The position numbers were made by a program, and so were the translations under genes. From Hypanus sabinus (taxonomy: Eukaryota), in contig NC_082731.1 of NCBI RefSeq assembly GCF_030144855.1, positions 11,222,001 to 11,286,000 on the forward strand: 64,000 nt of DNA. The letters run 5' to 3'. Below, in pieces: positions 4,761-33,836 of the stretch (positions are counted from its first letter, which is position 1; every line of letters starts with the position of its first letter). Below the pieces are notes generated by a model that was given only the letters and a program-made list of their open reading frames with translations, was not told where the DNA came from and made no database searches.

Positions 4761-7679
4761 TGGTGGCAGCAAAGGACCAGGCAAATATATTCCTCAGGGA
4801 ACAGGTAACCGTGGATGTTCTGGAAATGGAGGAGATGTGGATGACTGCAGTATCCACGGTGGAGGAAATGTCTGCTGTCCATTTCACTCCATAAATTCTG
4901 CGTGAACTGCTGAGTTCCTTCAATATTCTGTATAGCTTTTCGTTTTTAACTGCCCTCTTTATCTTGTCTGAAAGCTCCATACCAGGAATGCTAAGCTTCC
5001 GGGGGTGTCATTTGAACTGATAGGTGTACTCTGAGGTATTATACTTCCAGTTTCCAATATCTCTGCTCATCTGCGTTTTTGTAAGGGAACTAAAACAAGG
5101 AACTTGCGCATTCACAAAAAGTCAATACAGCATCCATTTACTAAAGCATCAATAATCGCTCCAGAACAAGGCCGTCGACAAAGACTGAGATGTTTCTCAC
5201 AGCTGTTCTATGTACCAATATCAGCTGTTTTACATTCAGTGAACTGGCAGATCTTTGGCACCATCGAGAAGGTGAAAGCACAGCCTACATTATGGCTGTT
5301 CCAACACTTCCAATAGCTCTGCAGTCAGAAATGGTTGTCGTAAAAACTTATCTTACTTTAAAGTCAGGCAAGTTTGGAGGGAATTTAGAATATACTTTTA
5401 TCAAACAAACCAGAGCTGAAATTTCCTCCCAGTAAACGGATGCAGCAGACTTTGAAGATAAATCTACTAATGTCTTCAAGTGGACAATCTGCTTCACGGA
5501 TAAGTCATGCTAATTACAGACACCGAATTTTAACAAAGAGGCATTGAAAATAAAGCATACAACAAAACCTGGACCTCCAAATGACTAATAAGCTTTTAAG
5601 TTTAGGCCCAAGATATTAATTCGCCATAATACGGCAGATGCCTGCATGGCTCCAGTGCTCAGTCACAGGCCAATAACTTCCACTTGATCAGCTGCGCACT
5701 GTTTTGCCACAACGTATTATCGCATTCTCCACGATGAACGTTTATTTCGAATTAAAGGGATCTAAATAAATTACATATTTACAACTCTTGCTATCCATTT
5801 GAGGATCGATCACAGCATAACGAAATTATTATACTAAATCTTTCAGTAATTTTACTAACTGAGGAAATATTTATGATTATCTTCTAGATTCTAAGAATTG
5901 GCAGGTGCAAAAACAATATTATGTAAATCAGGGATGAACCCGCACCATATCATGCATTTCGATCTCCGCAATTAAACCAACATAGCTATTCAGACTACGA
6001 CTGAACCATGGAAACCGCAAGATGAGCAGGAAAAGCAAAAGGTGCGAGGCATTAATAACAAGGGTAAAATCTCCATCAATTTTCGTGGGAGTAATAGTGG
6101 CAAAATAAACAAATGATTTCAACACCATCTTGTGAGACGAGGGAGTTGCTCTGCAGATGCTGTGATTCAAATCACTAAAGGTGTGAAACAGTAAGAATGC
6201 ATTAATCCGTCAGAATCTGTGTTCCTGTAACGTAGAGATAAATCAATTTTCTTAATTTATGTGTCAAGTTTAAATTATGGAGGTTTTCCAGTAATGCATT
6301 GGGCAATTTTTACTACCTGTGTAGAGCTTTCCTGACTGTCGCAGTGCAGTTCCCAGTTTATCCGCCATCAATGACATATATACAAGGGCCAGTAAAAACA
6401 TCAGAGATCACAGGCACCCCGCTTATCTGTCCCTCTCTCTTCAGCAAGGTGGGTATGTAGCAACCATGCCAGGACCACCGGAGAAAAAACAGTTAGTTTC
6501 CATAAACAGTAAGTCAGATCAATACGTCCGCCCACCAACCCGTCCCTTCATACCCCCAACCACCACAACATTAAAATTTCCTTTCAGGCACCATATGCAC
6601 CGACAACCCTAAGGCTAGCGACTCTTTATGCGCATATGACCAATCCAAGCCCATAATCTATTTTACATATATTTATTGTGATATGTATGTTACTGTGCTT
6701 TTTTGACCTGCATCGGATCCGGGGTAATAATTATTTTGTTCTCCTTTACTCTTGTGTTCTGAAAATTACATTAAACAATCTTGAGTCTTGAATTTTGATC
6801 AAATATTTATCGTATAGTGATTAGGACTCATTTCAGATATCAAACTAGAACAGATTTAAAAGAATATTAACTCCTCCAGTGATACAGAGAGATAAAAAAG
6901 AACATAAGCAAAAGTAGTGGACGAGTGGTTCTCTTCAAGACTGCTCATTCATTCGTGACATACTGGGAGATCTTCTCTCTCTCTCTCCCTCCCTCCCTCC
7001 CTCACGCTCTCTCTCTCGCTGTCTCCACATGCCTTAGAAACGGAGACAACAGAATGCAAGAAAGAAAACATCCTTCATTAATATTTAATCTCAAGGATAT
7101 GAGTTCAGGCACATTCCATTCTGGTCACCACATTCACATATGACACCATTTTTTCGTACAAGCTTACATTTTGTGTTGCAAATCATGGTATTGACCAAAG
7201 GTGTATCATGTTTACCTCTTTCCTGAAACATCACCCCATGAGTCATTAATACATTATACCAAAAAGCAAAATACTACATAAAAAGTACGAGTACAAATTT
7301 AGTATCGCTGTTAAACAACAGGATTATTATTATAATTACAGTTCCATATGGTAATACATCACACGATATAGCGGTGCCTGGTGCTATAATTGTCTAACAT
7401 GGCCCTTCAGTCAGTAAATTAAAACAGACAGTACTCAGAGTAAAACAGATGTTACAATTATGGTAAAAGTTGAAAGGATCCGAAGCAGCATTGTATCTCG
7501 AAATTGCTCCTCCAATTACAAAAACTACTCCTGAAATCGGCCTCCATTGAAGTGAGACACATTTTTTTGGGTTACGGCTTTTGAGTGTCCTTCCTGTGCA
7601 CTCAGTTGACATTGCACAGCAGGGTCCCTGTTATTGATCTGATCACAAGGTAATGTCAGAATTGTAAAAGGAACTTGAG

Positions 7680-10110
7680 GGCAATTGTAAGGGGATCGGG
7701 AAAATCAGCTTAATCCGGATCACAAGAGAGGAAATGTGTTGAATGCCTTCGAGATGGCTTTTCAGAGTAGCTTGTGCTTGAGCCTACTTGGCTAAGGCTA
7801 TCTTAGACTGGGTGTTGTGTAAGAATCCAGATTTTATTAAGGAGTTTAAGGTAAAATAACTCTTAGGGGAGAGTGATCATAATATATTTGAGTTCAGACT
7901 GTTGTTTCAGAGGACAAGGTATAAGTCAGATGTAACAGTATCGCAATGGAGTAAAAGGAATTACAGAAACAGGATAGAGGAGCTTTTCCCAGGTGGAATG
8001 GAGGGGTATGACGGTAGAGTAGAGGTGGCTGAAGTTTCTGGGAATAGTTCACATTGCACAGGATAGGTGTGTCCCACAGAATACGTAGTACACAAGTGGC
8101 AAGGGTAGGCAGCCATGGCTGACGGGGAAAGATAGGGCTGCACAAAAAACAAGGAAGGTGCCTTTTACGTAACAAAAGTGAGTCAGAAGTCAGGCGACTG
8201 GGAACTTTTAAACATTCAACAAAAAACAACTAAAAAAGTCTATAAAAAGAGATAAATGTGAAATATGAGGGCAGACTTGCCAATAAAGCAAGATACCGGA
8301 AGTTTTTTTTTCCCCAGTTATATGAAGAGTAAAAGGGGAGTGAGAGTTGATATTGGACCACTGGCAAATGATGCCAGTGAGACAGAAATTGGGGGGGGGG
8401 GGGGGGAATGACAGATGAGCTTAATGATTACATTTCGTCTGTCTTCACTGTGAAAGGCACTAGTAGAGTGCCAGATGTCCATGAGTGTCAGAGAGCAGGA
8501 ATAAGTCCTATTGCTATTACAAAGGAAAAAGTACTAGGCAAACTTAAAGGTCTTAAAATAGTTAAATCACCTGGACCAGATGGACTATATTTTAGAGTTC
8601 TGAAAGAGGTAGCTGAAGAGATAGCTGATGCATTGTTCATGATCTTTCAAGAATCATTTGATTCTGGCATGGTTCTGGAGGACTGGAAAAATTCAAATGT
8701 CACTACTGTTTTAATAAAGAAGGAATGCAAAAGAAAGGAAGTTATAGGACAATTGGCTGAACCTCAGTGGTTGAGAAAGTGTTGGATTCCCTTATGAGGG
8801 ATGAGGTTTCGGGATATTTGGTGACCTCTGATAAAATAAGTCAAAGGCAGCATGATTTCTGCAGTGGGAAATTTTGCGTGAGAAATCTGTTAGAGTTCTT
8901 TGAGGAAGTAACAACAGGGTGGATAATAGAGAGGCTGTGGATTCCATTTACTTGAATTATCAGAAGGCTGCTTAACAAGATAGACTCACATACAGGAAAT
9001 ATTTGGGCATGGAGAGAGAAATGACTGACAGGCAGGAGGCAGCAAGATGGGACAAAAGGAGGCCTTTTCTGGTTTGCTGCTCTTGACCAGTGGTGTTACT
9101 TATGTGTCAGTATTGGGACCACTACTTTTCACATTCTTTGTCAGTGATATATATCATGGAATTAATGGCTTTGTGGCAAAGTTTGCAGATGATACGAGGG
9201 TGGGGGGTTGATAGTGCTGGGAAAGCAATGTGATTCATCAGGACTTAGACAAATTGGAAGAATGGGCAAAACAGTGGCAGATGGAATACAGTATTCAGAA
9301 ATGTATAACAATGTATTTTGCTAAAAGGAACAAAAGGGCAGATTGTTATCTAAATGGGGAGAAAATTCAAATATCAGAGATGCAAATGAACTCAGGAGTC
9401 CTCGTGCAAGACTCCAAAAAGGTGAAGTTACAGGTTGAGTCTGTGGTAAAGAAGGCAAATGCAATGTTGACAGACATTTCAAGGGGAATAAAATATGAAA
9501 CATGAGGAGATAATGCTGAGGCTTTATACAACACGAGTCAGGCCATACTTGGAGTAATGTCAATAATTTTGGGCCACTATCTCAGAAAGGATGTGTTATC
9601 ATTGGAGAGAATCCAGAGGAGGTTCACAAGAAAGATTTCAGAAATTAAGGGGTTAACATGTGAGGAACGTTTGGCATCTTTGGGCCTGTACTCACTAAAA
9701 TTCAGAAGAATGCATGTGCCTCTCATTGAAACCTACAGAATGTTGAAAGGTCTAGATAAGGGGGGTGGATATGGGATAGAGCATTCCCCATTGGGGTGGA
9801 CAGAGTTAAAGGGCACAGTCCCAAAAATTGAGAGGCGACCCGACCCTTTAGAACAGAGGTAAGGAAGAGTTGTCTTAGCCAAAGGGTAGCGAATCTGCAG
9901 AATACTCCGTCACAGACGCCTGTGGAGGTCAAGACCATGGGTATACTTAAAAAGAACATTGATCGTTTCCTGATTGGTCAGGGATCGGAGATTATGGTGA
10001 GAAGGTAGGTGTATTGGTTTAAGTGGGATCTGGGATCAGACATAATGGAATGACAGAGAGGACTTAATTGGCTGAATGGCCCAATTCTGCTCCTGTCTAT
10101 TATAGTCTTA
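7680..10110 (+). mobile_element. CR1 LINE ORF2 (late endonuclease, RT, C-terminus) and 3' UTR, decayed
   Basis: Motifs KSPGPDGLYFRVLKEVAEEIADAL, NLLEFFEEVT, KFADD (aagtttgcagatgat), DLDKLEEWAKQWQM and LGLYSLKFRR. Ends in the CR1 tail gctgaatggcccaattctgctcct. Confidence 0.95.
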
Positions 10111-10624
10111 TGTTTCATATACATCCATCGGTTGTTTGCATTTGCTGCTGTGTTTTATACTCTGTTAGCTCTATTAAACCTTTCTTTACGTTTAATGTTC
10201 TGCATTTATACAGTCTAAAGTACATATTCATGTCTTTTGAAAGATATTGTACTAATTTGAATTAATTGTGTTGGTTTTAAAGTTGAAGGAGCATATAATT
10301 CCAAGTCATCCATGTCTTAATGTGTCAATGTATAGCTCATTTTGTTGTTTATAATTTGATACCCGATTTTGTTCCAATTCAGTAAAGTACAAAGTGGTTT
10401 TAAAGTTAAACAGAACCATAGTGGACTTAGAAAGTCACCTTGGAAAACGCCTCAGGTTATATTCATAGCTGTTATTATTATCATTATTGAACATTGGTTG
10501 TTTGTATCTGTTGTTGCATAGGTTTCTTTGTATTTAATGTGAATGCCTGCAAGAAAGTTGATGTAACGGTAGTAAATGGTGACCTATATTTACTTTCATA
10601 ATAAATTTACTCTGAACTTTGAGC

Positions 10625-12780
10625 ATCGCTGATAAGCATTGCTTGCAGTGGTAACTCCTTATTCATGTCTTATTGTAGTCATATAGATGGTTGCTTATGA
10701 TGTCCAGATAGCTAGCAATGATATGTACCCAGTGTCTCAATGCCAGGAATCAGGGGTTTTAGTCTGGTTTACTCAGATGAGGTGGTCCACTTTATTATGA
10801 ACGGTGGTAGATAGAACGGCAGTTTTCGGTTGGGCATCTACATGGAAAAGTGTTATCTTCATTCATTGGACTGCCTCCCAGATTTGCTCCCAGTCTACCT
10901 GTCTCACAAGGGTTTTTCCAGCATCTGCCTCTTCCTCTACTGCAACTCAACAATCCATACATTTATTTAATTTGCTGTCGCCAGGGAGTGTATACATGTG
11001 CAGCAGATCACATTCATACAGAAGTGACAAGGCGACTGCCACCAGTTCACTCCCTGGCTGACCGCATTCTCTCTGTCACTGTTGTTAACTGTTCCTATGA
11101 CTGGATTAAATGCGACAGTTCACCACCCCCATGCACAAACTTTTCAGCGTCTGGAGCCGTCTATAAATCAGGCATGATATTTGTTTGATTCAGGTGGCTG
11201 CTTCTGTGACATGACTCAAGTAACAGGAGACTCTGGGATAGGATGTTCAATGGTCTCTGTGTACCTACTCACAGGTGCATGGACTAGATGTTGGTGTAAT
11301 TCACTGAACCTCTCTAGACACATTCTTGCTAGTTCTGCGATATACTATTTCCAATTTACAATAGAGGTTTGCTGTTCCCTCTCTATCCAGCGATAGAGCT
11401 CTCCGTGAGCACCAACGTCTGATCTCCTGGTATCCTGCAATCGCTCTGTGGCGGATCAGTCCACAAATATCTGGTAACAGGCAAGCAATTGCATTTTGAA
11501 GGATGTATATCATTCAGCTGCAACAGGCAGGATAAGGGACCAGAACCCTGGGGTGTGTTCACTCAATTTTGTTTTTACTGCAGACTCCGTAGAGCGGTGT
11601 TCTAATGATCAGATAACTGTAACTCAAATGGCAATATGAGTAAAAGGTGGGGGGTGGGAGGGCAGGGAGAGAGCCTCTGCTTCTCAGACAGCCTTGCTCT
11701 GGACCCCTTTCAAATGTTGCCTTTTTTCCTAGTTACTTTGTATAGAGGTCGTAGGAGGACAGTTTGGGATCACTTATGCTGCCTCCAATAGTCCCACAAG
11801 CCTTTGCGTCTGCCGATTATTGTTAGGGACAGCTATTTCTACTATCTTGTTTTGTACTTTACCTGGGATTATTTCCTGTCCTGTGAACCACTGGCCACCC
11901 AGAAACTTGACTGTCTGACTTGGCCCTTGTATTTTCTATGGAACCACCCATTCTCTGTCCTTCATGTGACTTACCTGCTTGCCCTAGGCTTCAGCTAACC
12001 CTCCTCAGTATGAGCTCTTAGCATGATGTGATCTACATAGTGGGCTACCAGGTGAGAGCTCGAGTACATCGAGGAGCCACGCTACCAATCTATGACACAG
12101 AGTACTGCTGTGTACATACCCCGAACCAATCTAGTGAAGGTTTACTATTTTCTTCGACTCCTATATTGGAACTCGGGCAACAGAGGAATAGAGAAGAATG
12201 CATTGCATAGAACTATTATGGCGTACTACATCTTGTCACCCTTCAACATTTGTCCAGTAAGGTCACCAAGTCCGGGCAGCAACAGTTAATGAAGGAACTT
12301 GTTTTTAAGCTGGCAATAATAAATCGTCATCTTTGAACTGCTGTCTAATTTCCATTCTGAACAGACTTGTGAATTATACTCAGAAGTTGTGTATTGTTTT
12401 AGTAGCTCCGCTATGTGTCCAAGCCTTCCAAATGTCCAACTGTAATTGGGCACTGCTTCACACATGTCACAGCACTATGTAACAGTATCTTAAGAGGCTA
12501 AAACAGTTTTTTTCCCCATGAGAAGGGCACTAGGCTCATCCCTTTTCGTGTGGCTGTGATGTTTCAATGAGTACCAATTCAGTTCAGGTTTTATTTTGCT
12601 GTTATAGGGTTACCATTTTGCCAGATAGAGTTTTTATTAATGCTCGACACATGTCATATGACTTCTCCCAAAAGCACACACCAGGATCTAATAGGATGCA
12701 TCCTATTGTTTGTGAACACCCACCTTATTTGACTGAGGGGCTCCCATTTGGGGGCGTCAGGACTACCTCTCTCCATCTTG
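10625..12780 (-). pseudogene. pol: Degraded endogenous retrovirus pol (protease-RT-tether-RNase H-start of integrase), ERV-L/class III-like
   Basis: Colinear minus-strand motifs across stops and frameshifts: LLDPG (12680-12694), YAIIVLCNAFFSIPL (NAFFSIP 12184-12204), HYVDHIML (YVDH 12028-12039), KIQGPSQTVKFLGGQW...QTQRLVGL, YWRQH, VLLRPLYKVTRK, GFWSLILPVAAE*YTSFKMQLLACY, QQTSIVNWK*YI, A*FIDGS (11153-11167), ELVAVAL, WEQIWE...FHVDA (10833-10844), CKQC (10636-10647). These track the HERV-L/MuERV-L Pol sequence as I recall it. Confidence 0.85.
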
Positions 12781-13259
12781 GCTCCCTGACAGGCTGGAGA
12801 GCAACCTGCGGATAATGCACGCAGTGGCTACTTTTTAGGTAACCTTTGACCCTTGTACTTTTTCATCCCTTAGTCGTACCAGGCTGTATCTTCTTATCTC
12901 TCATGACCATCAGCCTGAAACATAGACAACAAGACTGAAATGAGGAAAACATTTTTCATCAGTGTTGAATGTCACGTATTTGTGTTCATGAACATATCCA
13001 GACTATCACCAGATTTAGCCGACTGCATTGCATCTTTATACCACCTAATTTCATTTTAAGTCCAGTTGTCTATTTCCGTTCATGATTTGATCTGATTTGG
13101 CAGAAGAACTTCACTCTGATTCACTGATTCTGAGATGGCTCATCTCTGCTTTCCAGGCTTACATTTCAGGATGCAGTCTCGCAACCTCCTTATTTCTGTT
13201 GCCCCTGGTGGTCATCCTGCCACATATTCCTCTGTCTCGGACACTGAAGAAGTTGTAGA

Positions 13260-14160
13260 AAATGGATACAGAGGCTCATGGGGTGGTAGGTAAGGGCAAT
13301 TGGAAACCGATTCCTGCTATGGTCATTATAGGCACAGTATAATGGCACATTAGGCGAGAAATGCAATAGATGCAGTTGAACGAAGTATCGATGGAAGTAG
13401 AAGGGAGCCCATGGATTTTGAAAAAGGACACCTTAGATGTTCTAGAATGGAACCCTCATTCTGAAGAAAAATGCAGTGGAGATAGAGGAACTGAAGGAAT
13501 CGAATAGCATTTTTACTGGTGACAAGGTGGCAACATGCCACAATAACTGTGGGAGTCAGTGATTTTATAAAATATGTCAGTAGATAATCTGTCTCCAGTG
13601 ATTGAGACAGAGAAATTGAGGAAAGGGGAAACAGCTATCAGAGATGGACCAAGTAATTTGGAGTGTTGGGTGGAAGTTCGAGCTAAAGTTGATGAAATTG
13701 AGGAGCTCAGCATGGCTGCAGGAAGCAGCAAACATATCTTCATTGAAGCAGTCTTCAATGTCACTAACAAAGAAATGGAGTCCATTACTAGTGTAGGCTT
13801 GGAACATGGACCTTTTTGCACAGCTGATGAAAAGACGGATGTTGTTTGGGCCCATGCAAGTTTCCATTGCTATGTTGCTGGTCTGGAGAATGTTGGAGGA
13901 GCCAGAAGTAAAATTGTTGAGGGGAAGTATCAGTTCTGCCAAACAAAGGAGAGTGGTCCTGGAGAGAAACGAGTTAGGGTGGTTGTTCAAAAAGAAACAG
14001 AGATCCTTAACGCCTTCATAATGTGGGATGGATATGAATTGGAAGTGGATGTTCATTGTGAAAATAATGTCATTTGGGCCAGAAAGCAGGAAGTTATTTC
14101 TGTGATGGAGAGCGTGAGAAGTGTAACAGATGTAGGTAGGAAGGGTGAAGGTTAAGGAAA
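13260..14160 (-). mobile_element. Penelope-like element, RT region (decayed)
   Basis: Minus ORF 13577-14056 reads SIPHYEGVKDLCFFL...TTLLCLAELILPLNNF...AMETCMGP...SCSHAELLNFINFSSNFHP, followed by STDIFYKITDSHSY. Confidence 0.9.
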
Positions 14161-14929
14161 GGAATGATCCAATTGGGACAAAATGGAATCAAGATATGCA
14201 GAACAGAATTCAGTGGGCAGAAACTGGTAGCACAATAGGCTTACTGAGCAGTTTGGTTTGTAAATCATGGGTATCAATGTGCAGTGCTCCAGTAGTGCTC
14301 ATTATATCCGTACTTCTCAAGACTGACAGCATCTGCAGAAATTTGTGCATGCATTGACTTCAGTCCCTCTATTATTAAACAGTCCATATATTGTAATATT
14401 GTTAAGTAGCTCACCAGCTGACATATCTCGGGCTGCAGAAGGAAGCCAGGGTTGATAGAGTAAACTCACAGTAAATGAGAGGACATGCAAACCCCACTAA
14501 AACAGCACAGGGAATCAAGATCAAAACAGATTGCTGAGTTGTGAGGTAACAGTTTACAAGTCCATTCATACTCTTGTTAAGAATAGAAGTGATGCTGACC
14601 CTAGTCTCTGATCCACTATTCTTCCCACACCTTTATGGGAACGATTTTCTTGTTGAATTTGGATATCACGTGGGTCCAGTCGCCTTCTGAATTATAGCCC
14701 AGATCTGGAGAGCATGCAAAGGAAAAGTCAGACAGCAGCAAGTTCCTTTATTCAGGACTTATTACACTGACAAGACTGCACATTGAGTGTGAGCTCAAAA
14801 ATACTCTAATGATCCAAACACCCTCCTGAAATTTGCAACATTCACATTACAACTGTTGCAGATTTTATTGTTTCACACAAATGCAACAGTGACTTCATTT
14901 TCATTTTAGGTTTTAATCATTGCCAATCA

Positions 14930-15870
14930 CTGTAATAGACAACATTCAGCCCATCAAATCTGCTCTGCTATTCCATCATGGTTAATTTATTATTCCTCTC
15001 AATCCCAATCTCCTGTCTTCTACCACTATTTTTTGACAGCCTCTCTCAATCAGAAACCTATCAAATCCCATTTTAAAAATGCCCAATAACTTGGCCTACA
15101 CAATTATGTGTAGCAATGAATTCCACAGATTCATTACCATCTAGCTGAAGAAATCCCCCTCACTTCTGTTCTAAAGATATATACTTGTATTCTGAGGCAA
15201 TGCCCTCTGGTGTCAGATTCACCCGCTACAGAAAGCACCTTCTCTAACTCCACTCTCCAATGTCAGCACATCCTTTCATAGATAAGAGGGCCAAAATTGC
15301 TTCCAATAATCCAGTGAGACCTGATAGGTTCTTGATTTAATAAAGGCGTCAAAGATTACTGGGAGGAGATTGGGGCTAAGAGGGACAAGTCGCCCCATTT
15401 TGGAAATAGTGTACGCCTTTATTCCTCCTACCAAAGTGCATTACCATGCAATTCAAAGCCTCAAATTAAATGTGCCACTGCTTTGCCCATTCTCCTAGTC
15501 TGTCTAACTTTTCTGTAGACTCCCTTCTTAATCAGAACTTCCTACTCCTCCACTATTTTCATATAGTCAAAGGCCTTCTGAAAATACAAGTAAACAACAT
15601 CTGCTGACTCTTCTTTGTCTGTCTTGAATTTCTTCTTTGAATTGCAACAGATTTGTGAGTTAAGATTACCCCTTAAGTAAACCATGCTGACCTCGGTCTA
15701 TTTTATCACGTGCCTCCAAGTACACTGAAACCTGATCCTTATTAATGGACTCCAACAATTTCACAGCTGCTATCTATCCTATAATTTACTGTCTTTTGTC
15801 TTCTTATCTCTTTGAAGAGTGAAGAGACTTTTGCAAGTTTCTAATTCCCCAGAGCCATTGCAGAATATAG
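14930..15870 (-). mobile_element. CR1 LINE fragments (3' end and RT region)
   Basis: Contains reverse-complement CR1 3' UTR (aacattcagcccatcaaatctgctctgctattccatcatgg) and RT-region sequence (aaggccttctgaaaatacaagtaaacaacatc). A short plus-strand piece lies between them. Confidence 0.7.
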
Positions 15871-15874
15871 TCAT

Positions 15875-16090
15875 CCTTCATAGATCTCTAATACCTCCAT
15901 AATACCTCCATAGTGCCGAGAGGGAACAGTGAAACAGAATTGTTGACAGCATTTAAAATTAATCTGGAGCACAGGAATCAGCTTTCTGGCTTTGAGCCGA
16001 GTGATGGAAGGTAGGATTAATACTGATGGGTCCTCACTTGTCAGTGTGGACATGTTGGACTGAATGCCCTACTTCTGTGCTTTATGATTA
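15875..16090 (+). mobile_element. CR1 LINE 3' end
   Basis: ...gacagcatttaaaattaatctggagcacaggaatcag...ggacatgttggactgaatgccctacttctgtgctttatg is a CR1 3' UTR. Confidence 0.65.
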
Positions 16091-25194: not shown

Positions 25195-25704
25195 TTTTCA
25201 TTTTTAGAATCTTTTTCTAGGTACATAATCTTCTACAGCTATAAAACGATACAAGACTTCAACAAATTAATATATCTACAATTAATAAAGCTGAGGAAAA
25301 TAAAAGCTGATCGTAATATATGAAAATGAAAAAAATATATATAAGGAAAAGGATAAAAAGGAACCCAATCTAACTCAAAAAAAACCCCACTGACTACAAA
25401 AAAAGGGGGAAAACTCATTCGGAATCAACCCCCGGAGCAATACGTCTTACCATCCTCTATATATATATATAGAAAAAGAATCATGAACCACCAATTCATA
25501 TTTATATAGAATAAGATTGGAAGGAAACCATATAAAATAATTCAAATGAAATGATAATATTTGGCAAAAGCGCCCCATCTTCTCTCAAAATTAAATCGGG
25601 GAACGAAAGTTTTACTACTAATTTTTTTTTCCAAACTGAGACATAACATTACTTGAGAAAGCCATTCAATTAATGTAGGGACAGAGGTATCTTTTCATTT
25701 TAAT
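25195..25704 (-). mobile_element. L1-clade LINE, 3' end segment
   Basis: Reads continuously with 30622-30779 across the Gypsy insertion (VLARRAILLK*KDTSVPTL). The T-rich end near 25195 fits an A-rich tail on the minus strand. Confidence 0.75.
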
Positions 25705-26507
25705 TGTTATAATCCCAGCCCCCTCCTTTGTGAGAATTGCAAGAGCATCCGTCGAGAGGGGGGGTGGGTCAGTAGACCCAGTCGGAGAGAGAGAGAGACG
25801 TGCCAAATTGCAGGTCCCACCAGGGATACAGAATAAAGACAAAAGCGACTATTGTCTCATGGAGACCACGTGAAAAGCCCTTGGGCAAGGTGGGCTGGTT
25901 GAGAGAGAGATTGCATCATCACAACCTGATTGATACCTGCGACCCCGTGAGGAAGTATAAAGGAGAGTCTCAGGGGGACAGCCCCCTCAGACGCACCAAG
26001 AAGACACGAAAGTGTTCCCGCAGCAGCGGGAAGCCATTCTGAAGGAAGCCACGTGCGTTAGATTCCGGGATTGGAATCTGTGGCTGGAATCACAGAAAAC
26101 CGCTTTTAACTAACATCGGGGAGAGGAAGCCAACGCTCCCCCGATTTCACGGAAGATTCATCGAGACTCGGCAAGTTCTTTCTCTTCTCCCCCAATCTCT
26201 CTCTCTCGGTCGCCCCACGGAAAACCCAGCGATTTTCAAAGGGCTGAGGCCTGCAGACTTTGAGTGACTTTTATATTTCCAACGGACAATCTATTAACCC
26301 CTAGACACCAGCAGAGCTCACTTCTTAATGATGATTATTACTATACCCGCGCTTTAGATTGAGTGTTGACGATGTGCACTACCTGAATGTTTGTATTCAC
26401 CCTACTTTTGTGTCCCTTTATCAATAAAAACTTCGACAATAGTGACATCCGAGCAACGGACCTCTCTATCTTTGCTGGTAAGTTCTCCAGTTACGGGATT
26501 CGTAACA
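25705..26507 (+). repeat. 5' LTR of Gypsy element (803 bp)
   Basis: Direct repeat of 29803-30617, roughly 95% identical by eye. Contains TATAAA (aagtataaagg) and AATAAA. Confidence 0.95.
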
Positions 26508-26620: not shown

Positions 26621-28052
26621 ATGGACGTGGGTGAATTTATGGAAAACCCGACGGTGGGGGCGATAGAGGCGGCCACAAAATCAGACTTGTTAAACTTAGC
26701 GAAGGGATTGAACCTCACAGAAGTGAGGTCGTCCATGAAAAAGCGGGAGGTACGAAGGGCCGTAACTCAGTATTACATTGGGAAGAAGGTGTTTGAAGCT
26801 GAAGTATTTGGAGATATCCCTGAAGAGGTACCATCAACTGGGACGGTTCTGTTAGACGTGGAGAAATTGAAGTTGGAACGTGAAATTAAGTTAAAAGAGC
26901 TGGAAGCGGCTGAGAGAGAGAGAGGGAAAGGCAGCATGAAATTCACCTAAAGAAGCTAGAAGCAGAATAGAAACAGAGGCAACATGACTGGGAAATTCAG
27001 AAGATGAGAAACGAGCGAAGAGATCAAGGATTAGACCAAGCAGAGCGGCTTAATGTTAGTAGGGAGTTGAGATTGGTGCCCCCGTTCGAGGAGGCAGATG
27101 TCGATAGTTATTTCTTGCTTTTTGAAAAGGTGGCAGTAAGTCAGAAATGGCCAAAAGAGCAGTGGGTGGCGTTGTTACAAAGTGTGTTAAAGGGGAAGGC
27201 CCAACAAGCATATGCGGCCTTGTCCCTGGAGGAGGGAGGAGTGGAGAATTATGATGAGGTAAAAAAGGTCATTCTCCGGACTTATGAATTGGTACCTGAG
27301 GCCTATAGACAAAAGTTTAGAAATTTAAGGAAAGGGTGGAATCAAACGTATACCGAGCTAGCCCATGAGAAGGGGGTGCTCTTGGACCGTTGGTGCACCG
27401 CGGAAAGAGTGGGCGAGGATTATGGGCGTCTCAGGGAGTTGTTTTTGATTGAGGAATTTAAAAGTTGTGTTCCGGAGGAGATCCGGGTGCATTTGAATGA
27501 GAAGCCAGATAAGTCCATTTCAGAATTTGCCAGGTTGGCGGACGAATATGCCTAACCCACAAGACAAGGACTCCCTCGAATAAAAGTCCCCAGAGAGACT
27601 GTGGGAACGTTCGAGAAAGTCCGACGAGTGAGGCAGAGGTCCCACCGGGAGCTAGCGGTAAGGTTGAGGGGGAAAGGCAAAACGGCCAGAGGGCTCCGGG
27701 TTTGACCTGTTTTAATTGTGGAAAGGAAGGGCACATTGCATCTCGATGCTTTACTCCGAGGAAGGAGGTAGGAAGAGGGAAAGCCGCAGTCCCTATCAGG
27801 TGTGCCGTGGTAAGCAGCAAATCGACCAGAGAGCCGAGAGTAGACAGAGTACGAGAAGGCTCTGGGAGTTGTCTGTCACACGGAACCGTGTCTGTGACGG
27901 AGGGAGACACACCAGTTCCCGTACGAATCTGGAGGGATACGGGCTCTGAATTATCCCTGGTTAGCCGTAAGGTACCAGAATTTGGTCGGGAAACGGGCAT
28001 GGTAAAGGTGGAAGGAATATATAAACGGATAGAAATGGTGCCCTTAATATAA
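26621..28052 (+). pseudogene. gag: gag-protease of the Gypsy element, frameshifted (ORFs 26621-26950, 27004-27555, 27702-28052)
   Basis: RLVPPFEEADVDSYFLLFEKVA...WP...LLQSVLKGKAQQAY...YELVPEAYRQKFR...RLRELFLIEEF (SCAN-like), CFNCGKEGHIASRC (CCHC) and IWRDTGSELSLV (DTG aspartic protease). Confidence 0.9.
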
Positions 28053-28074
28053 GGTCATTCTGGATTGTGAGCTG

Positions 28075-29418
28075 GTGTATGGATCAGTTGAAGTGGGGGT
28101 GCCCTCAGAATTCCCGAGAGCTGACGTGGATATCCTGCTGGGGAACGACTTAGCAGGGGGTAAGGTTTGGTCAGCCATGCTGCCGACCTGGCGACCGGCG
28201 AGTACGGTGGCCCCGTCCCTAGCGCCTAAGGACCATCTCGCCGGCGCGGTCACTTGCAGCCTGTCGAGAGAGAGAGAGAGAGCTGTGAACGAGAGCAGAT
28301 TAAATCTGGCCAGTTTTGATTTGGCCGAGACGTCTTTGCCGACCCTGTGCCATGAGGGTTTCCAGGGTGGTAAAACGAAGAGTAGTAAAGTGAAAGGGGG
28401 TAAGGGAGAGGAGATAGATCTGCCTTTAGCGAAGAGAAAGGTCCTAAAGGTAGGAGATAAAGATGAGAAACAGATAAAGCTGTTGAAAGGTCCAGAGTTG
28501 GACATGGATGATCTGTCTGGTTTGGCAGAATTGTTTGAAGAACTTGAGAGTTCTAAAGGTGTTCCCGACAATGAGAGGGGGGCAGTCCTAGATGGAAAGG
28601 ATACCCTTGCCTCGAAGGGGTCTGCTGAAAGGGCCGAGGAGGTTGTTTCAGCTCGCAGGGTTGCGCCTTCCCCGGGTGGGAGCTGCCTAGAGAGTAACTG
28701 GGAGGATCAGGGGAAGTTAGAATTTGAAAAAGGTACGGGTGTTGAAAGCCTGGAAGAGGCCAATGTCCCGTTTGAGTGTGTCCGAGATGGCGATGCCTGA
28801 GGTGCTGAACCTGGTAACGGAGCTCAGAAGAAGTCTGAGATATCTGATCCAGTGGAACGGGGCGGCCGTCCTTGTGGGTCAGATGGACTCGGTTCAGTGG
28901 GAAAAGGGTTAACATTGGTAACCGGGGAAAGTGTGAGTTCCCCGGCGTCTGTACTCGAAGGAGTGTTCAAAGTTAATGCAGAATTTAAGAATGGGGGGGG
29001 GGGGGTGAGGATTCTTGGCGAAGGAAACGAAAAGTCTGTAGTTTCCAAATCGAAGGAAGAAGTCTTAAACCTGGCAGATCGCTCACAGAGTGAGCCAGGG
29101 AATAGCCAGGGAATCTACTCTATTGTTATGCCAGGATGGGGTGTGAAGAGGCCGCCTTCGACAGGCTACTTGAGCGAAGAGTTCGAATCAAACACCAATA
29201 GCCTGAAGGGGACTGATAAAAGTGTCAGCCACCTGGGTAAAATCGAAGAATTGGGTGAAAAGGGTCTAAGTTTGGGGCATGGTGTTGCAAAAATAACCCC
29301 GATGAGCGGGGCGGGCGGGAGTTCCCCACGCCAAACTACTCAAGTTCCCCACGGGGGGCGGGGGGGCTCGCTGGAAAAGAGGGGACGGTTAATGGGGATG
29401 CCATTGTTAGACAGCTAA
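28075..29418 (+). pseudogene. Protease C-terminus followed by a ~380-codon extension of unknown function; one in-frame TGA at 28798-28800
   Basis: DILLGNDLAGGKV and AVTCSLSR...DLAETSLPTL are typical post-protease motifs. ORFs 28075-28800 and 28852-29418 are in the same frame (offset 777) with only that one stop between them. Confidence 0.6.
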
Positions 29419-29791: not shown

Positions 29792-29802
29792 AAGAGGGGA
29801 AG
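29792..29802 (+). promoter_or_regulatory. Polypurine tract of the Gypsy element
   Basis: AAGAGGGGAAG immediately before the 3' LTR, preceded by a T-run. Confidence 0.85.
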
Positions 29803-30617
29803 TGTTATTATCCCAGCCCCCTCCTTTGGGAGAATCGCAAGAGCACCCGTCGAAAGGGGGGGGAGGGGGGGTCAGTAGAACCAGTCGGAGAGAGAGAGAA
29901 AGACGTGCCAAATTGCAGGTCCCACCAGGGATACAGAATAAAGACAACAACGACTATTGTCTCATGGAGACCACGTGAAAAGCCCTTGGGCAAGGTGGGC
30001 TGGTTGAGAGAGAGAGATTGCATCATCACAACCTGATTGACACCTGCGACCCCGTGAGGAAGTATAAAGGAGAGACTCAGGGGGACAGCCCCCTCAGACG
30101 CACCAAGAAGACACGAGAGTGCTCCCGCAATAGCGGGAAGACATTCTGAAGGAAGCCACGTGCGTTAGATTCCGGGATTGGAATCTGTGGCTGGAATCAC
30201 AGAAAAGCTCTTTTAAGTAACATCGGGGAGAGGAAACCAACGCTCCCCCGATTTCATGGAAGATTCATCGAGACTCGGCAAGTTCTTTCCCTTCTCACCC
30301 AATCTCTCTCTCTCGGTCGCCCCACGGAAAACCCAGCGATTTTCAAAGGGCTGAGGCCTGCAGACTTGGAGTGACTTTTATATTTCCAATGGACAATCTA
30401 TCAACCCCTAGACACCAGAAGAGCTCACTTCTTAATGATGATAATTACTATACCCGCGCTTTAGATTGAGTGTTGACGATATGCACTATCTGAATGTTTG
30501 TATTAACCCTACTTTTGTGTCCCTTTATCAATAAAAACGTTTGAAAATAGTGACATCAGACTTCAACGGACCTCGCTATCTTTGCTGGTAAGTTCTCCAG
30601 TTACGGGATTCGTAACA
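29803..30617 (+). repeat. 3' LTR of Gypsy element (815 bp)
   Basis: Direct repeat of 25705-26507, ending TAACA and followed by TSD TAAT. Confidence 0.95.
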
Positions 30618-30784: not shown

Positions 30785-31457
30785 TGTGCTGTCTTTACGA
30801 CAGTTATTTAGTTTATAATATTTTCGCTTAGTAATTCATTCAATAGTATTTTCTAGTTAGAATTAGAAGTGTTTAAAGTATATTCATTGCATGTAAAATA
30901 TATCGGCATGCGATGACGTCACATCCGGTTTCGCCGCGTCTTGTGGGAAAACACCGGTTTGAAATTAGCGCGAGGGTGGGGGCTTTCCACGAGGCTCACC
31001 TGAGCACAAGCAGTTTTGCAGGCATGAGAAATCACAGTGAGAGCAACGCTGTAAGTTAATAGATAATCGATATATTGAACTAAGATGTTAATGCTGATCC
31101 TGTTAGAGGTAACGTCGGTAGATAATGTTTATGCTTTCGTTAGTTAAAGAGTCGCGGATAGTTTGCATGGAAGTGTATTTAAAGTAGTCAATGGAGCAGG
31201 TAAACTCTCCCTGTATACTGCACCTTAGTGTAATGTAGTTATAGTCACCTTTGCAAGTATTTACACTTGAAATGTGATATTAAGGAAGGAACAAATACTG
31301 TATCAATCTTGTATTGTTTTATCAACAGTTTTCACCATATGTTAATGTGAAGAGTGAACAGTAAATGGTTAATCTTACTGCGATCTGGTTCTTATTAACT
31401 GTGGTTTATCCGGACGTTAAATTCGGCGTTTCGTTACACCCGAAGGAGAACGTGACA
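30785..31457 (+). repeat. 5' LTR of BEL element
   Basis: Direct repeat of 33164-33836. Confidence 0.95.
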
Positions 31458-31495
31458 GTGAAAAAGCGGCATTATCAGGTGTTTCAAGTGCTGCA

Positions 31496-33106
31496 ATGTC
31501 AGCTCAATCCAGCATCAAGTCGACGCCGCCCAGCGACAAGGGCAGTAAACCGACATCAAGTAAGCCCACCCAGGCGTTATCAGGTGTTCCAAGTGCTGCA
31601 ATGTCAGCTCGATCCGGGATCAAGTCGATGGCGCCCAGCGACAAGGGCAGTAGAACGACATCAAGTAAGTCCGCACAGGCAAGAGCCAAGGCAGAAGCCG
31701 CCAAGGTGCGACTGCATTACGCCAAACAAGAGGCAGTTTTGAAAATGAAACTGGCCACCAAAGAAGCCGAAAGGGCCGCCAGACAAAGAGAAGAGGCTGC
31801 CAGACAAAGAGAAGAGGCCGCCAGAGAAGCCGAAACCCAGTTGGAAATGGCAAAAATATCGACAGAGTTGCATGTGCTGCAGCTAGAAGGAGAAGGAGAA
31901 GCTGCCAGGGTGGAAGCAAAGTACATAGAACAAGCTGAAGGGTCGCGTGATCTGACCGAAGTAAGATCTACTTTAGAAAGGACCAGACTGGAACGCACAA
32001 GCGACTATGTACAATATCAAATAGACAGGCAGGCTCGTCTCCCCTCTCCATACGTATTCGATAACTTCCCCAGCTACGAGGAACCTCAGAGAGTCACGAT
32101 TGCATCACATCCATACGAGGAAGGAAATTTACCCTCACGGCTCCGTGATGAAGTCAAGAATGAAAGAACCGACAACGCTCCTTCACCCCCACAACAGGAC
32201 GGCGGGGAGGGAGAGGTTCACTCCAGGACAACAATTGTCAGCTCGAACTGTACAGAAGTTTGCGGTCAAACTCAGTCAAGCCGTTCTTGTTCCGAGATCT
32301 GCCTCACTGAGGTGTACCCTAAAGAAGCACAACAAGACATTACCAAGCGTAAAGTAACCGACGAGACGCTAGGTCAGTCAGTTTTCGTTCAAACCGAGCA
32401 CGGAAACAAACTTGCACAATCAGCTCAAGATACCATTTCTTTAAAACCCAAAGACACCAAGGTCTTCAGAGATGAAGCAAATAATGGGGTTGCCCCATTG
32501 CCTATCAGAGAACCATGCCAGCGCTCACCAGATAACAAAGAGCAGGCAGTCAAACGGTTCACGTCCTTACGGAAAACCTGGAAAAGGAAACCTGAGATAC
32601 AGCAACGCACCCGATTGGCCCACGAGGTACTGTGCACCCTAATGGCAGAGGTCACAGCCATTATAAACGCACAATCATTCCTACCTGTGTCTTCTGACCC
32701 AGAAAACCCCTTTATACTTTCGCCATCAACGCTCCTTACGCAGAAGGCAGGAGCACCTCCTCCACCAGGAGACTTCTCAGACAAGGATTTGTACACAAAG
32801 CAATGGAGACAAGTCCAGGCTCTGGCAAATCAGTTCTGGCCTCGCTGGAGACAAAAATATCTACCTTTGTTGCAACAGAGACAAAAGTGGACAGAACCCC
32901 GAAGGAATCTTCAAGTTGAAGACTTAGTCCTGCTCAGGGACAAGCAAGTCGCTCGCAACAGCTGGCCAACGGCCAGAATCACTGCTACATTCCCTAGCGG
33001 GGATGGACATGTCAGGAAGATCGAATTGAAGACTACCGACCAAGGCGATGTGAAAATTTACCAAGGGCCGGTTACAGAAGTTATTCTACTTCTACCCAAT
33101 GACTGA
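31496..33106 (+). CDS. 536-aa intact mosaic ORF: BEL gag N-terminal coiled coil, pre-RT linker pieces and integrase C-terminal region
   Basis: ARAKAEAAKVRLHYAKQEA (gag), CTEVCGQTQSSRSCSEICL, VAPLPIREPCQRSPDNKEQAVKRFTSLRK, then directly HEVLCTLMAEVTAIINA...LSPSTLLTQK...WRQVQALANQFWPRWRQKYL...QKW...NLQVEDLVLL...W...RI...DGHVRK...PVTEVILL. Confidence 0.8.
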   Translation: MSAQSSIKSTPPSDKGSKPTSSKPTQALSGVPSAAMSARSGIKSMAPSDKGSRTTSSKSAQARAKAEAAKVRLHYAKQEAVLKMKLATKEAERAARQREEAARQREEAAREAETQLEMAKISTELHVLQLEGEGEAARVEAKYIEQAEGSRDLTEVRSTLERTRLERTSDYVQYQIDRQARLPSPYVFDNFPSYEEPQRVTIASHPYEEGNLPSRLRDEVKNERTDNAPSPPQQDGGEGEVHSRTTIVSSNCTEVCGQTQSSRSCSEICLTEVYPKEAQQDITKRKVTDETLGQSVFVQTEHGNKLAQSAQDTISLKPKDTKVFRDEANNGVAPLPIREPCQRSPDNKEQAVKRFTSLRKTWKRKPEIQQRTRLAHEVLCTLMAEVTAIINAQSFLPVSSDPENPFILSPSTLLTQKAGAPPPPGDFSDKDLYTKQWRQVQALANQFWPRWRQKYLPLLQQRQKWTEPRRNLQVEDLVLLRDKQVARNSWPTARITATFPSGDGHVRKIELKTTDQGDVKIYQGPVTEVILLLPND

Positions 33107-33153
33107 TTAAGAGACTAAGTTTGTACTCTGCTCATTGTGACCTTACGAAGGTC

Positions 33154-33163
33154 AAGCGGGGAG
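33154..33163 (+). promoter_or_regulatory. Polypurine tract of the BEL element
   Basis: AAGCGGGGAG directly upstream of the 3' LTR. Confidence 0.7.
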
Positions 33164-33836
33164 TGTGCTGTCTTTACGACAGTTATTTAGTTTATAATAT
33201 TTTCGCTTAGTAATTCATTCAATAGTATTTTCTAGTTAGAATTAGAAGTGTTTAAAGTATATTCATTGCATGTAAAATATATCGGCATGCGATGACGTCA
33301 CATCCGGTTTCGCCGCGTCTTGTGGGAAAACACCGGTTTGAAATTAGCGCGAGGGTGGGGGCTTTCCACGAGGCTCACCTGAGCACAAGCAGTTTTGCAG
33401 GCATGAGAAATCACAGTGAGAGCAACGCTGTAAGTTAATAGATAATCGATATATTGAACTAAGATGTTAATGCTGATCCTGTTAGAGGTAACGTCGGTAG
33501 ATAATGTTTATGCTTTCGTTAGTTAAAGAGTCGCGGATAGTTTGCATGGAAGTGTATTTAAAGTAGTCAATGGAGCAGGTAAACTCTCCCTGTATACTGC
33601 ACCTTAGTGTAATGTAGTTATAGTCACCTTTGCAAGTATTTACACTTGAAATGTGATATTAAGGAAGGAACAAATACTGTATCAATCTTGTATTGTTTTA
33701 TCAACAGTTTTCACCATATGTTAATGTGAAGAGTGAACAGTAAATGGTTAATCTTACTGCGATCTGGTTCTTATTAACTGTGGTTTATCCGGACGTTAAA
33801 TTCGGCGTTTCGTTACACCCGAAGGAGAACGTGACA
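33164..33836 (+). repeat. 3' LTR of BEL element
   Basis: Direct repeat of 30785-31457, followed by TSD AGGTT. Confidence 0.95.

Follow-up and report, generated by a model that had tools for sequence, protein, structure and literature searches.

ERV-L elements are primed by tRNA-Leu and duplicate 5 bp of their target on integration. Class III endogenous retroviruses (ERVs), or clade Huo, are distributed across all vertebrate groups according to the available text of Xu et al. (2018; PMC6001957), and the accessible part of PMC8922424 likewise describes clade Huo as infecting all major lineages. In S2 Fig of the former, the tip order, taken from the text of the figure and not from its drawn branches, sets a whale-shark element (Rh_ty_ERV3) and a killifish element (No_fu_ERV1) beside HERVL and Murine ERVL; the skate consensus sequences in the accessible part of the same paper are, by eye, not ERV-L-like. 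The available portion of PMC11089739 counts 2,843 clade III reverse transcriptase (RT) loci in six chondrichthyan genomes, with the sub-lineages unnamed in that text, and excerpts of PMC4422223 and PMC4977317 report snakehead-like and epsilon-like ERVs in the elephant shark; class III, snakehead-related Pols of anamniotes also appear in the accessible part of a bioRxiv paper on envelopes. At NCBI, ERV-L-like Pols from rays, a shark, bichir, killifish, lungfish and amphibians are held as uncharacterised proteins. An earlier note on this DNA had implied surprise at an ERV-L outside the amniotes; with such Pols already annotated in ray-finned fishes, lungfish, amphibians, rays and a shark, and with the whale-shark and killifish elements listed beside HERVL (PMC6001957, as far as its available text goes), the host range is not new, and it is likely only the old ray subfamily described below that is. 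The literature searched, a body of work outside which lay most subscription papers, Dfam and Repbase, yielded no account of ERV-L-like elements of rays with the anatomy set out here.

The window, by which we mean the whole stretch of 64,000 nucleotides analysed, contains at 12518-10617 on the minus strand a decayed retroviral pol made up of RT, tether, RNase H and the start of the integrase, and the reality of this remnant is confirmed. The earlier note had described a colinear minus-strand pol, and 17 of its 18 quoted motif strings were located in the order given; the eighteenth, VLLRPLYKVTRKKATFERGPEQ, is present as two pieces flanking a frameshift. With tblastn, ERV-L-like Pols scored up to 125 bits against the window and no more than 25.8 bits against 20 shuffles. 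A frameshift-aware alignment, as proposed in that note, joins 12414-10723 to P0037, an ERV protein of a stingray, with 198 identities in 496 positions, 22 stops and 10 frameshifts, and a colinear alignment of the same kind was also obtained with P0004. That no open reading frame betrays the gene proved right, as Pfam and PDB sequence searches of three single frames came back empty. A protein search with one frame, its stops replaced by X, returned four Pols, the best of them (E 1e-23) being the MuERV-L cluster, identified via its member Mus musculus Gm52800. The catalytic motif reads YVDH in the window copy and YIDD in sister copy L103. The parts of the copy, in the order of the element, are as follows.

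13057-12845, minus strand: remnant of the 5' long terminal repeat (LTR), the front third of a family LTR of ~650 bp; the first ~40 bases, the remainder and the primer-binding site are missing
12820-12577, minus strand: 5' part of gag, ~residues 33-120 of the P0037 Gag, containing the supposed protease motif
12518-12394, minus strand: end of the protease and junction to RT; 63-71% DNA identity to L072, L076, L103, L104 and L105
12414-11690, minus strand: RT, broken by stops and frameshifts (tblastn, frameshift-aware alignment, motifs)
11690-11330, minus strand: tether (connection) domain, broken (alignment, motifs, PF17919/PF17917 on the aligned part of P0037)
11180-10775, minus strand: retroviral RNase H, broken (alignment, motifs, PF00075 on P0037 1097-1245 and on sister copy L103)
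10775-10617, minus strand: zinc-binding start of the integrase, ending at CKQC; the DNA match to L103/L104 ends at 10617
10622-7450, unstranded: later insertions interrupting the provirus, in the place expected for the integrase core
~10528-10622, unstranded: very high-copy short repeat; contig depth >100,000 at 10528-10634 in two of four runs
~10090-10520, minus strand: non-LTR RT fragment within the later insertions
~7450-9850, plus strand: LINE (RVT_1, E 3.9e-05 in 7451-9850)
7446-7231, minus strand: 3' internal stretch, 59-63% identical to the pre-LTR region of L089 and L104, with a purine-rich tract-like site (7239-7231) at its end
7230-7026, minus strand: remnant of the 3' LTR, starting with TGT and cut by a (GA)n run at ~7020-6975; 66-75% identical to the LTR copies L094, L093, L108 and L091

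Remnants of both LTRs and of gag, which had been thought unrecognisable, thus lie outside or around the span 10625-12780 to which the pol had been assigned. The 5' LTR remnant is 69% identical to the LTR of L094 over 218 columns (E 7e-23) and has matches in as many as 15 of 16 further loci; the two LTR remnants of the window are 73.7% identical over 137 sites, and their outer ends are lost. The assignment of the gag stretch is indirect, because a direct protein comparison with seven Gag N-termini gave no match and the link runs only through the sister copies L094 and L089: the DNA of the stretch aligns with them at 165/246 and 165/234 positions (scores 84 and 129 vs shuffle maxima of 30 and 33), and L094 in turn scores 155, against 35, with the P0037 Gag. 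The same DNA alignment places the motif VK*GGCSQTIGCILLDPG (12733-12680), earlier taken for protease, at ~residues 61-84 of Gag; as protease, it was compared with nine database reference segments, none of which scored above shuffles. At 12518-12394, where the protease ends and RT begins, the protein scores are weak (46-52 vs shuffle maxima of 36-43); upstream of this junction most of gag and the protease are deleted. At the other end of pol, the proposed integrase start HNKVDHL...CKQC stands in part: CKQC does end the zinc-binding start of the integrase, whereas HNKVDHL is the end of RNase H (Pfam RNase_H, P0037 1097-1245). An integrase core sought in 7200-10640 gave no convincing match (scores 38 and 40 vs shuffle maxima of 34 and 43). 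Parts of the later insertions at 10622-7450 are missing from paralogous copies; the LINE among them may, by its motifs, be CR1-like. No tandem repeats were found in 5000-16000, and a low-copy segment, present in contigs of other organisms too, fills 13060-13262, from the 5' LTR remnant to the high-copy repeat that begins at ~13263.

Elsewhere in the window, a Gypsy-type gag-pro remnant at 26971-28800 carries a SCAN domain (E 2.5e-11) and a zinc knuckle, the SCAN/zinc-knuckle gag itself lying at 26971-28049, and is flanked by direct repeats (25702-26507 and 29800-30617, 94%) that look like its LTRs. At 30785-33836, identical 673-bp direct repeats (30785-31457 and 33164-33836) surround an open frame of 561 aa that has DUF5641 at its end (E 7.6e-26), presumably a very recent, internally deleted insertion of BEL/Pao type.

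For the classification of pol, the window was scored against 36 equally trimmed references, the class labels of unnamed rows being taken from trees built in this analysis: it reached 339-555 with 10 ERV-L-like Pols, 206-210 with two deeper class III-like references, 55-115 with eight class I references (one of them walleye epidermal hyperplasia virus 1), 57 with feline foamy virus, 39-90 with eight other references from frogs, fishes or unnamed sources (some 'NYNRIN-like') and 35-65 with seven Gypsy references, shuffles of the window (n=30) giving 32-52. In a tree of 51 rows (a subset of 105) and 408 columns, built with IQ-TREE under LG+G4 and with named references that exclude snakehead retrovirus, HERV-S, lokiretroviruses and class II, the window copy falls within a nine-row subfamily of its own genome (support 100/100). 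This belongs to a 19-row ray clade (96/97) made up solely of loci of the same genome and of Hemitrygon and Narcine proteins, the grouping most exposed to a possible pull from the ERV-L-like guides (P0037, P0023) along which the copies were read. The ray clade joins MuERV-L and amphibian, fish, bird and shark Pols in a 33-row ERV-L-like clade (95/97), and this is nested in a 37-row class III-like clade (100/100). Approximately unbiased (AU) tests on 37 rows rejected a grouping with class I (p 3e-67) and with Gypsy (p 5e-61), and also rejected the great-white-shark/killifish lineage (P0053, P0032) as sister of the subfamily (p 0.0009). The layout is of retroviral type, a tether followed by a second, retroviral RNase H and then by integrase (colinear alignment to P0037 and P0004; Pfam on P0037 and L103), which is the feature by which the pol had been set apart from Gypsy elements. 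Scores, tree and AU tests agree with the original call of a class III, ERV-L-like element, neither Gypsy nor class I, and the RT tree proposed alongside it, built here without the snakehead, HERV-S and loki names, groups the RT with neither. Judged by its Pol sequence, the element falls within the ERV-L-like branch of class III (clade Huo), and in its way of working it would resemble an ERV-L that lacks env; because its family appears to have no dUTPase and to use a serine primer, it would stand outside ERV-L in the strict mammalian sense.

Other members of the branch are plentiful in this genome of 4.04 Gb, where at least 83 of 140 ERV matches lie at 39-66% identity. All 30 ERV loci fetched from these matches (L031-L060) fall in the ray clade; 28 of them form a second, better preserved ERV-L-like subfamily that includes Hemitrygon P0046, and L057 and L058 a third, near P0037 and P0051. 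Six of the 30 share 84-90% protein identity with P0046 of Hemitrygon akajei, a similarity of ERVs only, which is in keeping with the cartilaginous-fish host that had been proposed. Together with the placement of all 30 in the ray clade, it makes a stingray-type ray the likely host. Close pairs across distant hosts occur elsewhere in the ERV-L-like clade (P0053/P0032 of great white shark and killifish, 100/99; P0025/P0041 of barn owl and lungfish, 97/91) and suggest host jumps within it.

The plan of the family was read from the sister copies. A repeat defined from dispersed loci that match the sequence upstream of pol gave 45 matches among the 40 scored of 358 candidates; it is ~650 bp long and, because L104 and L089 each carry two direct copies of it, one on either side of pol, we regard it as the LTR. 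Solo LTRs end in TGT...ACA or nearly so, and 5-bp target duplications match at 4/5, 4/5 and 5/5 positions in L134-L136, the three longest LTR matches fetched, the ends of four other copies being unreadable. A primer site complementary to tRNA-Ser(AGA), the identity of which was confirmed, follows the 5' LTR in three of the five copies examined (L094 16/18; L104 16/18 and L076 15/18, the latter two counted by eye) and is absent from the window copy. The distance from integrase core to integrase tail is only 31-34 codons in four of six sister copies (it was not measurable in the other two), as against 149-174 residues in seven of 10 references, those in which both motifs could be located, and because of this short interval we read the window's family as having no dUTPase between the two, a judgement by motif distance, since some dUTPase-region queries scored 42-60 and their starts may overlap the integrase end. 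Between the integrase tail and the 3' LTR lie ~580 bases in L104 and L089, which are alike there (67% over 714 columns); neither of these two proviruses, the ones with an intact 3' side, has an env Pfam match in this interval, and the absence of env rests on them together with the short 3' stretch of the window. Copies that keep LTR and pol (L103, L104, L076 and, at 12577-12518, the window) are often without most of gag; they might have a single deletion in common, as a non-autonomous form copied in trans would.

The window copy also has a history as a piece of host DNA. The ERV stretch recurs at seven further places on its contig, within 9.85-11.63 Mb (L061-L067, L109-L128), and at one on an unplaced contig; these paralogs are at K2P 0.01-0.21 from the window, and as their flanks are common to the copies, we consider them segmental duplicates of a single insertion. 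The whole window lies within a segmentally duplicated unit, and one paralog follows its 64 kb colinearly for the greater part, at 83-89%. A host gene that might explain the duplicated cluster was sought with Pfam on 269 stop-free frames of at least 65 aa, which yielded only mobile-element domains and sub-threshold matches; 18 further frames gave nothing against Pfam, and Rfam gave 0 matches. The stop at guide position 1181 is present in 7/7 paralogs and in 0/5 dispersed copies covering the site, which argues that the copy was already dead when it was first duplicated. Two further stops common to the paralogs are also seen in dispersed copies, where hot spots may account for them. The window copy has 16 stops at aligned positions and 10 frameshifts. 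The paralogs differ in deletions and insertions inside the ERV stretch, which, in the same paralog, is no better conserved (85.0%) than its flanks (83-89%). Their dN/dS is 0.61-1.05 (1.88 in one near-identical pair) vs a shifted-frame baseline of 0.53-0.98; in four of six pairs it is slightly under that baseline, so that strict neutrality is not proven. Between the window and the dispersed copies, on the other hand, dN/dS is 0.42-0.52 vs 0.67-1.04 in shifted frames, pointing to selection while the family replicated. The K2P distances were taken from the DNA alignment, codon-anchored values being inflated by misaligned columns near frameshifts (0.33 vs 0.137 for the window and L064). The dispersed copies are about equally distant from each other (K2P 0.27-0.30). 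Over 10617-12470 the window stands at K2P 0.41-0.44 from L068, L072, L076, L103 and L104, above their mutual distances, an excess that would fit a faster local rate on a short chromosome or an earlier sub-lineage; a faster local rate on short chromosomes is reported for sharks in the accessible part of PMC13100897.

Part of the stretch is contained in 15 of the 22 listed sequencing runs, from 10 organisms, with no share above 0.21 and no RNA run among them. In the four runs aligned, from four other organisms, the longest contigs are ~94-96% identical to it, and shorter, paralog-like pieces less so; one contig of another organism spans the junction at 10622 with more than 100 bases on each side. 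Given these contigs and the bridged junction, the insertion appears to be shared with other species by descent. In L104 the two LTRs differ by K2P 0.246 +/- 0.025 (539 sites); the window pair stands at 0.324 +/- 0.058 (137 sites) and that of L089 at 0.183 +/- 0.048 (99 sites). The available text of PMC13100897 gives dS 0.061-0.111 between whale and zebra shark over ~50 million years, and on this borrowed shark clock (0.6-1.1e-9 per site per year) L104 would be ~110-200 and the window copy ~145-265 million years old, ages that a ray clock twice as fast would halve. LTR divergence on the borrowed clock thus suggests a likely Mesozoic insertion and backs the description of the lineage as old. The per-generation rate of 7e-10 in PMC10587355 and the elephant-shark rate that follows from PMC4422223 were left unused for dating, as the ages they give are implausibly old.

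Our preferred reading, which we hold with considerable confidence, is that the window contains a dead, internally deleted ERV-L-like (class III) provirus with partial LTRs, the product of an old burst and of passive duplication in what is likely a stingray-type ray. Going by its anatomy and by established retroviral replication, the family would have been transcribed from the 5' LTR, its reverse transcription primed on host tRNA-Ser and its integration accompanied by a 5-bp duplication; because no env is seen, it may have spread mainly by copying inside germ cells, and because the dispersed copies are about equally distant, probably in one old burst, likely Mesozoic. The window copy would then have lost most of gag, the protease and the integrase core, gained LINE and SINE insertions and been carried passively through segmental duplications and speciations. 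We predict that it is inert and makes no protein today. The main rival accepts the same identity and supposes that spread was helped by an env-bearing parent, which either reinfected the germ line as an infectious virus or mobilised env-less, gag-deleted copies in trans. A class III, tRNA-Ser-primed element with env does exist in XtERV-S (PMC8278194, in its available text), copies such as L103, L104, L076 and the window, being without most of gag, would have needed a helper, and the dN/dS of 0.42-0.52 vs 0.67-1.04 shows selection during replication, not the route taken; the ~580 bases between integrase tail and 3' LTR in both proviruses with an intact 3' side, with no env Pfam match, nevertheless speak against it, and we consider it unlikely, though worth keeping in mind.

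The remaining alternatives concern what the element is and why it survives. That it belongs with ERV-S and not with ERV-L is improbable in our view: the sister copies do show two ERV-S features, the serine primer site and the missing dUTPase, and ERV-S is described in the accessible part of PMC8278194 as lacking an identifiable dUTPase, but the tree, which is without a named HERV-S, groups the element at 95/97 with MuERV-L and with Pols of amphibians and fishes that carry a dUTPase and sets it apart from bird and turtle rows that branch deeper, and primer type does not track phylogeny according to the available text of PMC8922424. Co-option of the remnant or its LTR by the host, as an explanation for its survival in eight duplicated copies, seems more improbable still; retention in eight copies on the contig and in four other organisms, and a dN/dS slightly under the baseline in some paralog pairs, would be in its favour, yet the reading has to contend with 16 stops at aligned positions and 10 frameshifts, with deletions and insertions that differ among paralogs, and with conservation no higher than that of the flanks (85.0% vs 83-89%). 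We give practically no credence to the idea that chance or decay has lent an ERV-L appearance to what is really a Gypsy/Metaviridae element or a class I, epsilon-like ERV. The lack of a Pfam match in single frames and the presence of Gypsy-type elements in the window (26971-28049) are compatible with it; scores of 35-115 vs 339-555, the rejection of both groupings by the AU test and the second, retroviral RNase H after the tether are not.

Taking the window element as the class III, ERV-L-like provirus of our preferred reading, we may ask how it relates to what has been described. Its nearest named relatives are the Hemitrygon akajei/Narcine bancroftii proteins (P0037, P0046, P0051), which form one clade with the window copy (96/97) and have no dUTPase domain listed; they belong to two sister subfamilies, that of the window being more decayed, and protein database searches found no protein of the latter. 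A bolder proposal, which we put forward tentatively and would not yet bet on, is that rays carry an undescribed ERV-L-like radiation of their own, represented in this genome by three or more subfamilies and elsewhere by relatives in a stingray and an electric ray. It would rank level with the mammalian ERV-L branch and be a mosaic in plan, combining a serine primer with the lack of both dUTPase and env, and the window's subfamily would have integrated well over 100 million years ago. If true, this subfamily would be among the oldest datable ERV-L-like insertions, and env-less spread in rays would be independent of that in mammals. What the present data contribute is the structure and dating of a ray family of ERV-L-like elements, and insertions that are common to species and duplicated within a genome can calibrate deep class III history in slowly evolving hosts.

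Among the ERV-L-adjacent elements of fishes, Rh_ty_ERV3 and No_fu_ERV1 resemble the window element in coming from a cartilaginous and a bony fish, a comparison made by tip listing and outside our own tree, and the first 400 residues of Rh_ty_ERV3 share, by eye, Gag motifs with P0037. With MuERV-L/HERV-L, the window's family has in common the order and motifs of Pol, the best database match (E 1e-23), the env-less plan and the TGT...ACA ends; it differs in being without dUTPase, in its serine primer, in an identity of only ~38% and in its position on a separate branch of an unresolved fork. XtERV-S of Xenopus tropicalis (PMC8278194, in its available text) is similar in being a class III element of a non-amniote host with an ERV-L-related gag-pol, a tRNA-Ser(AGA/TGA) primer site and an LTR of 705 bp, but it is intact and has env and a predicted dUTPase, whereas the window's family is dead and shows neither. 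A family that joins an ERV-L-like Pol to a serine primer and lacks dUTPase is relevant to the timing of the gain or loss of dUTPase and env in the branch.
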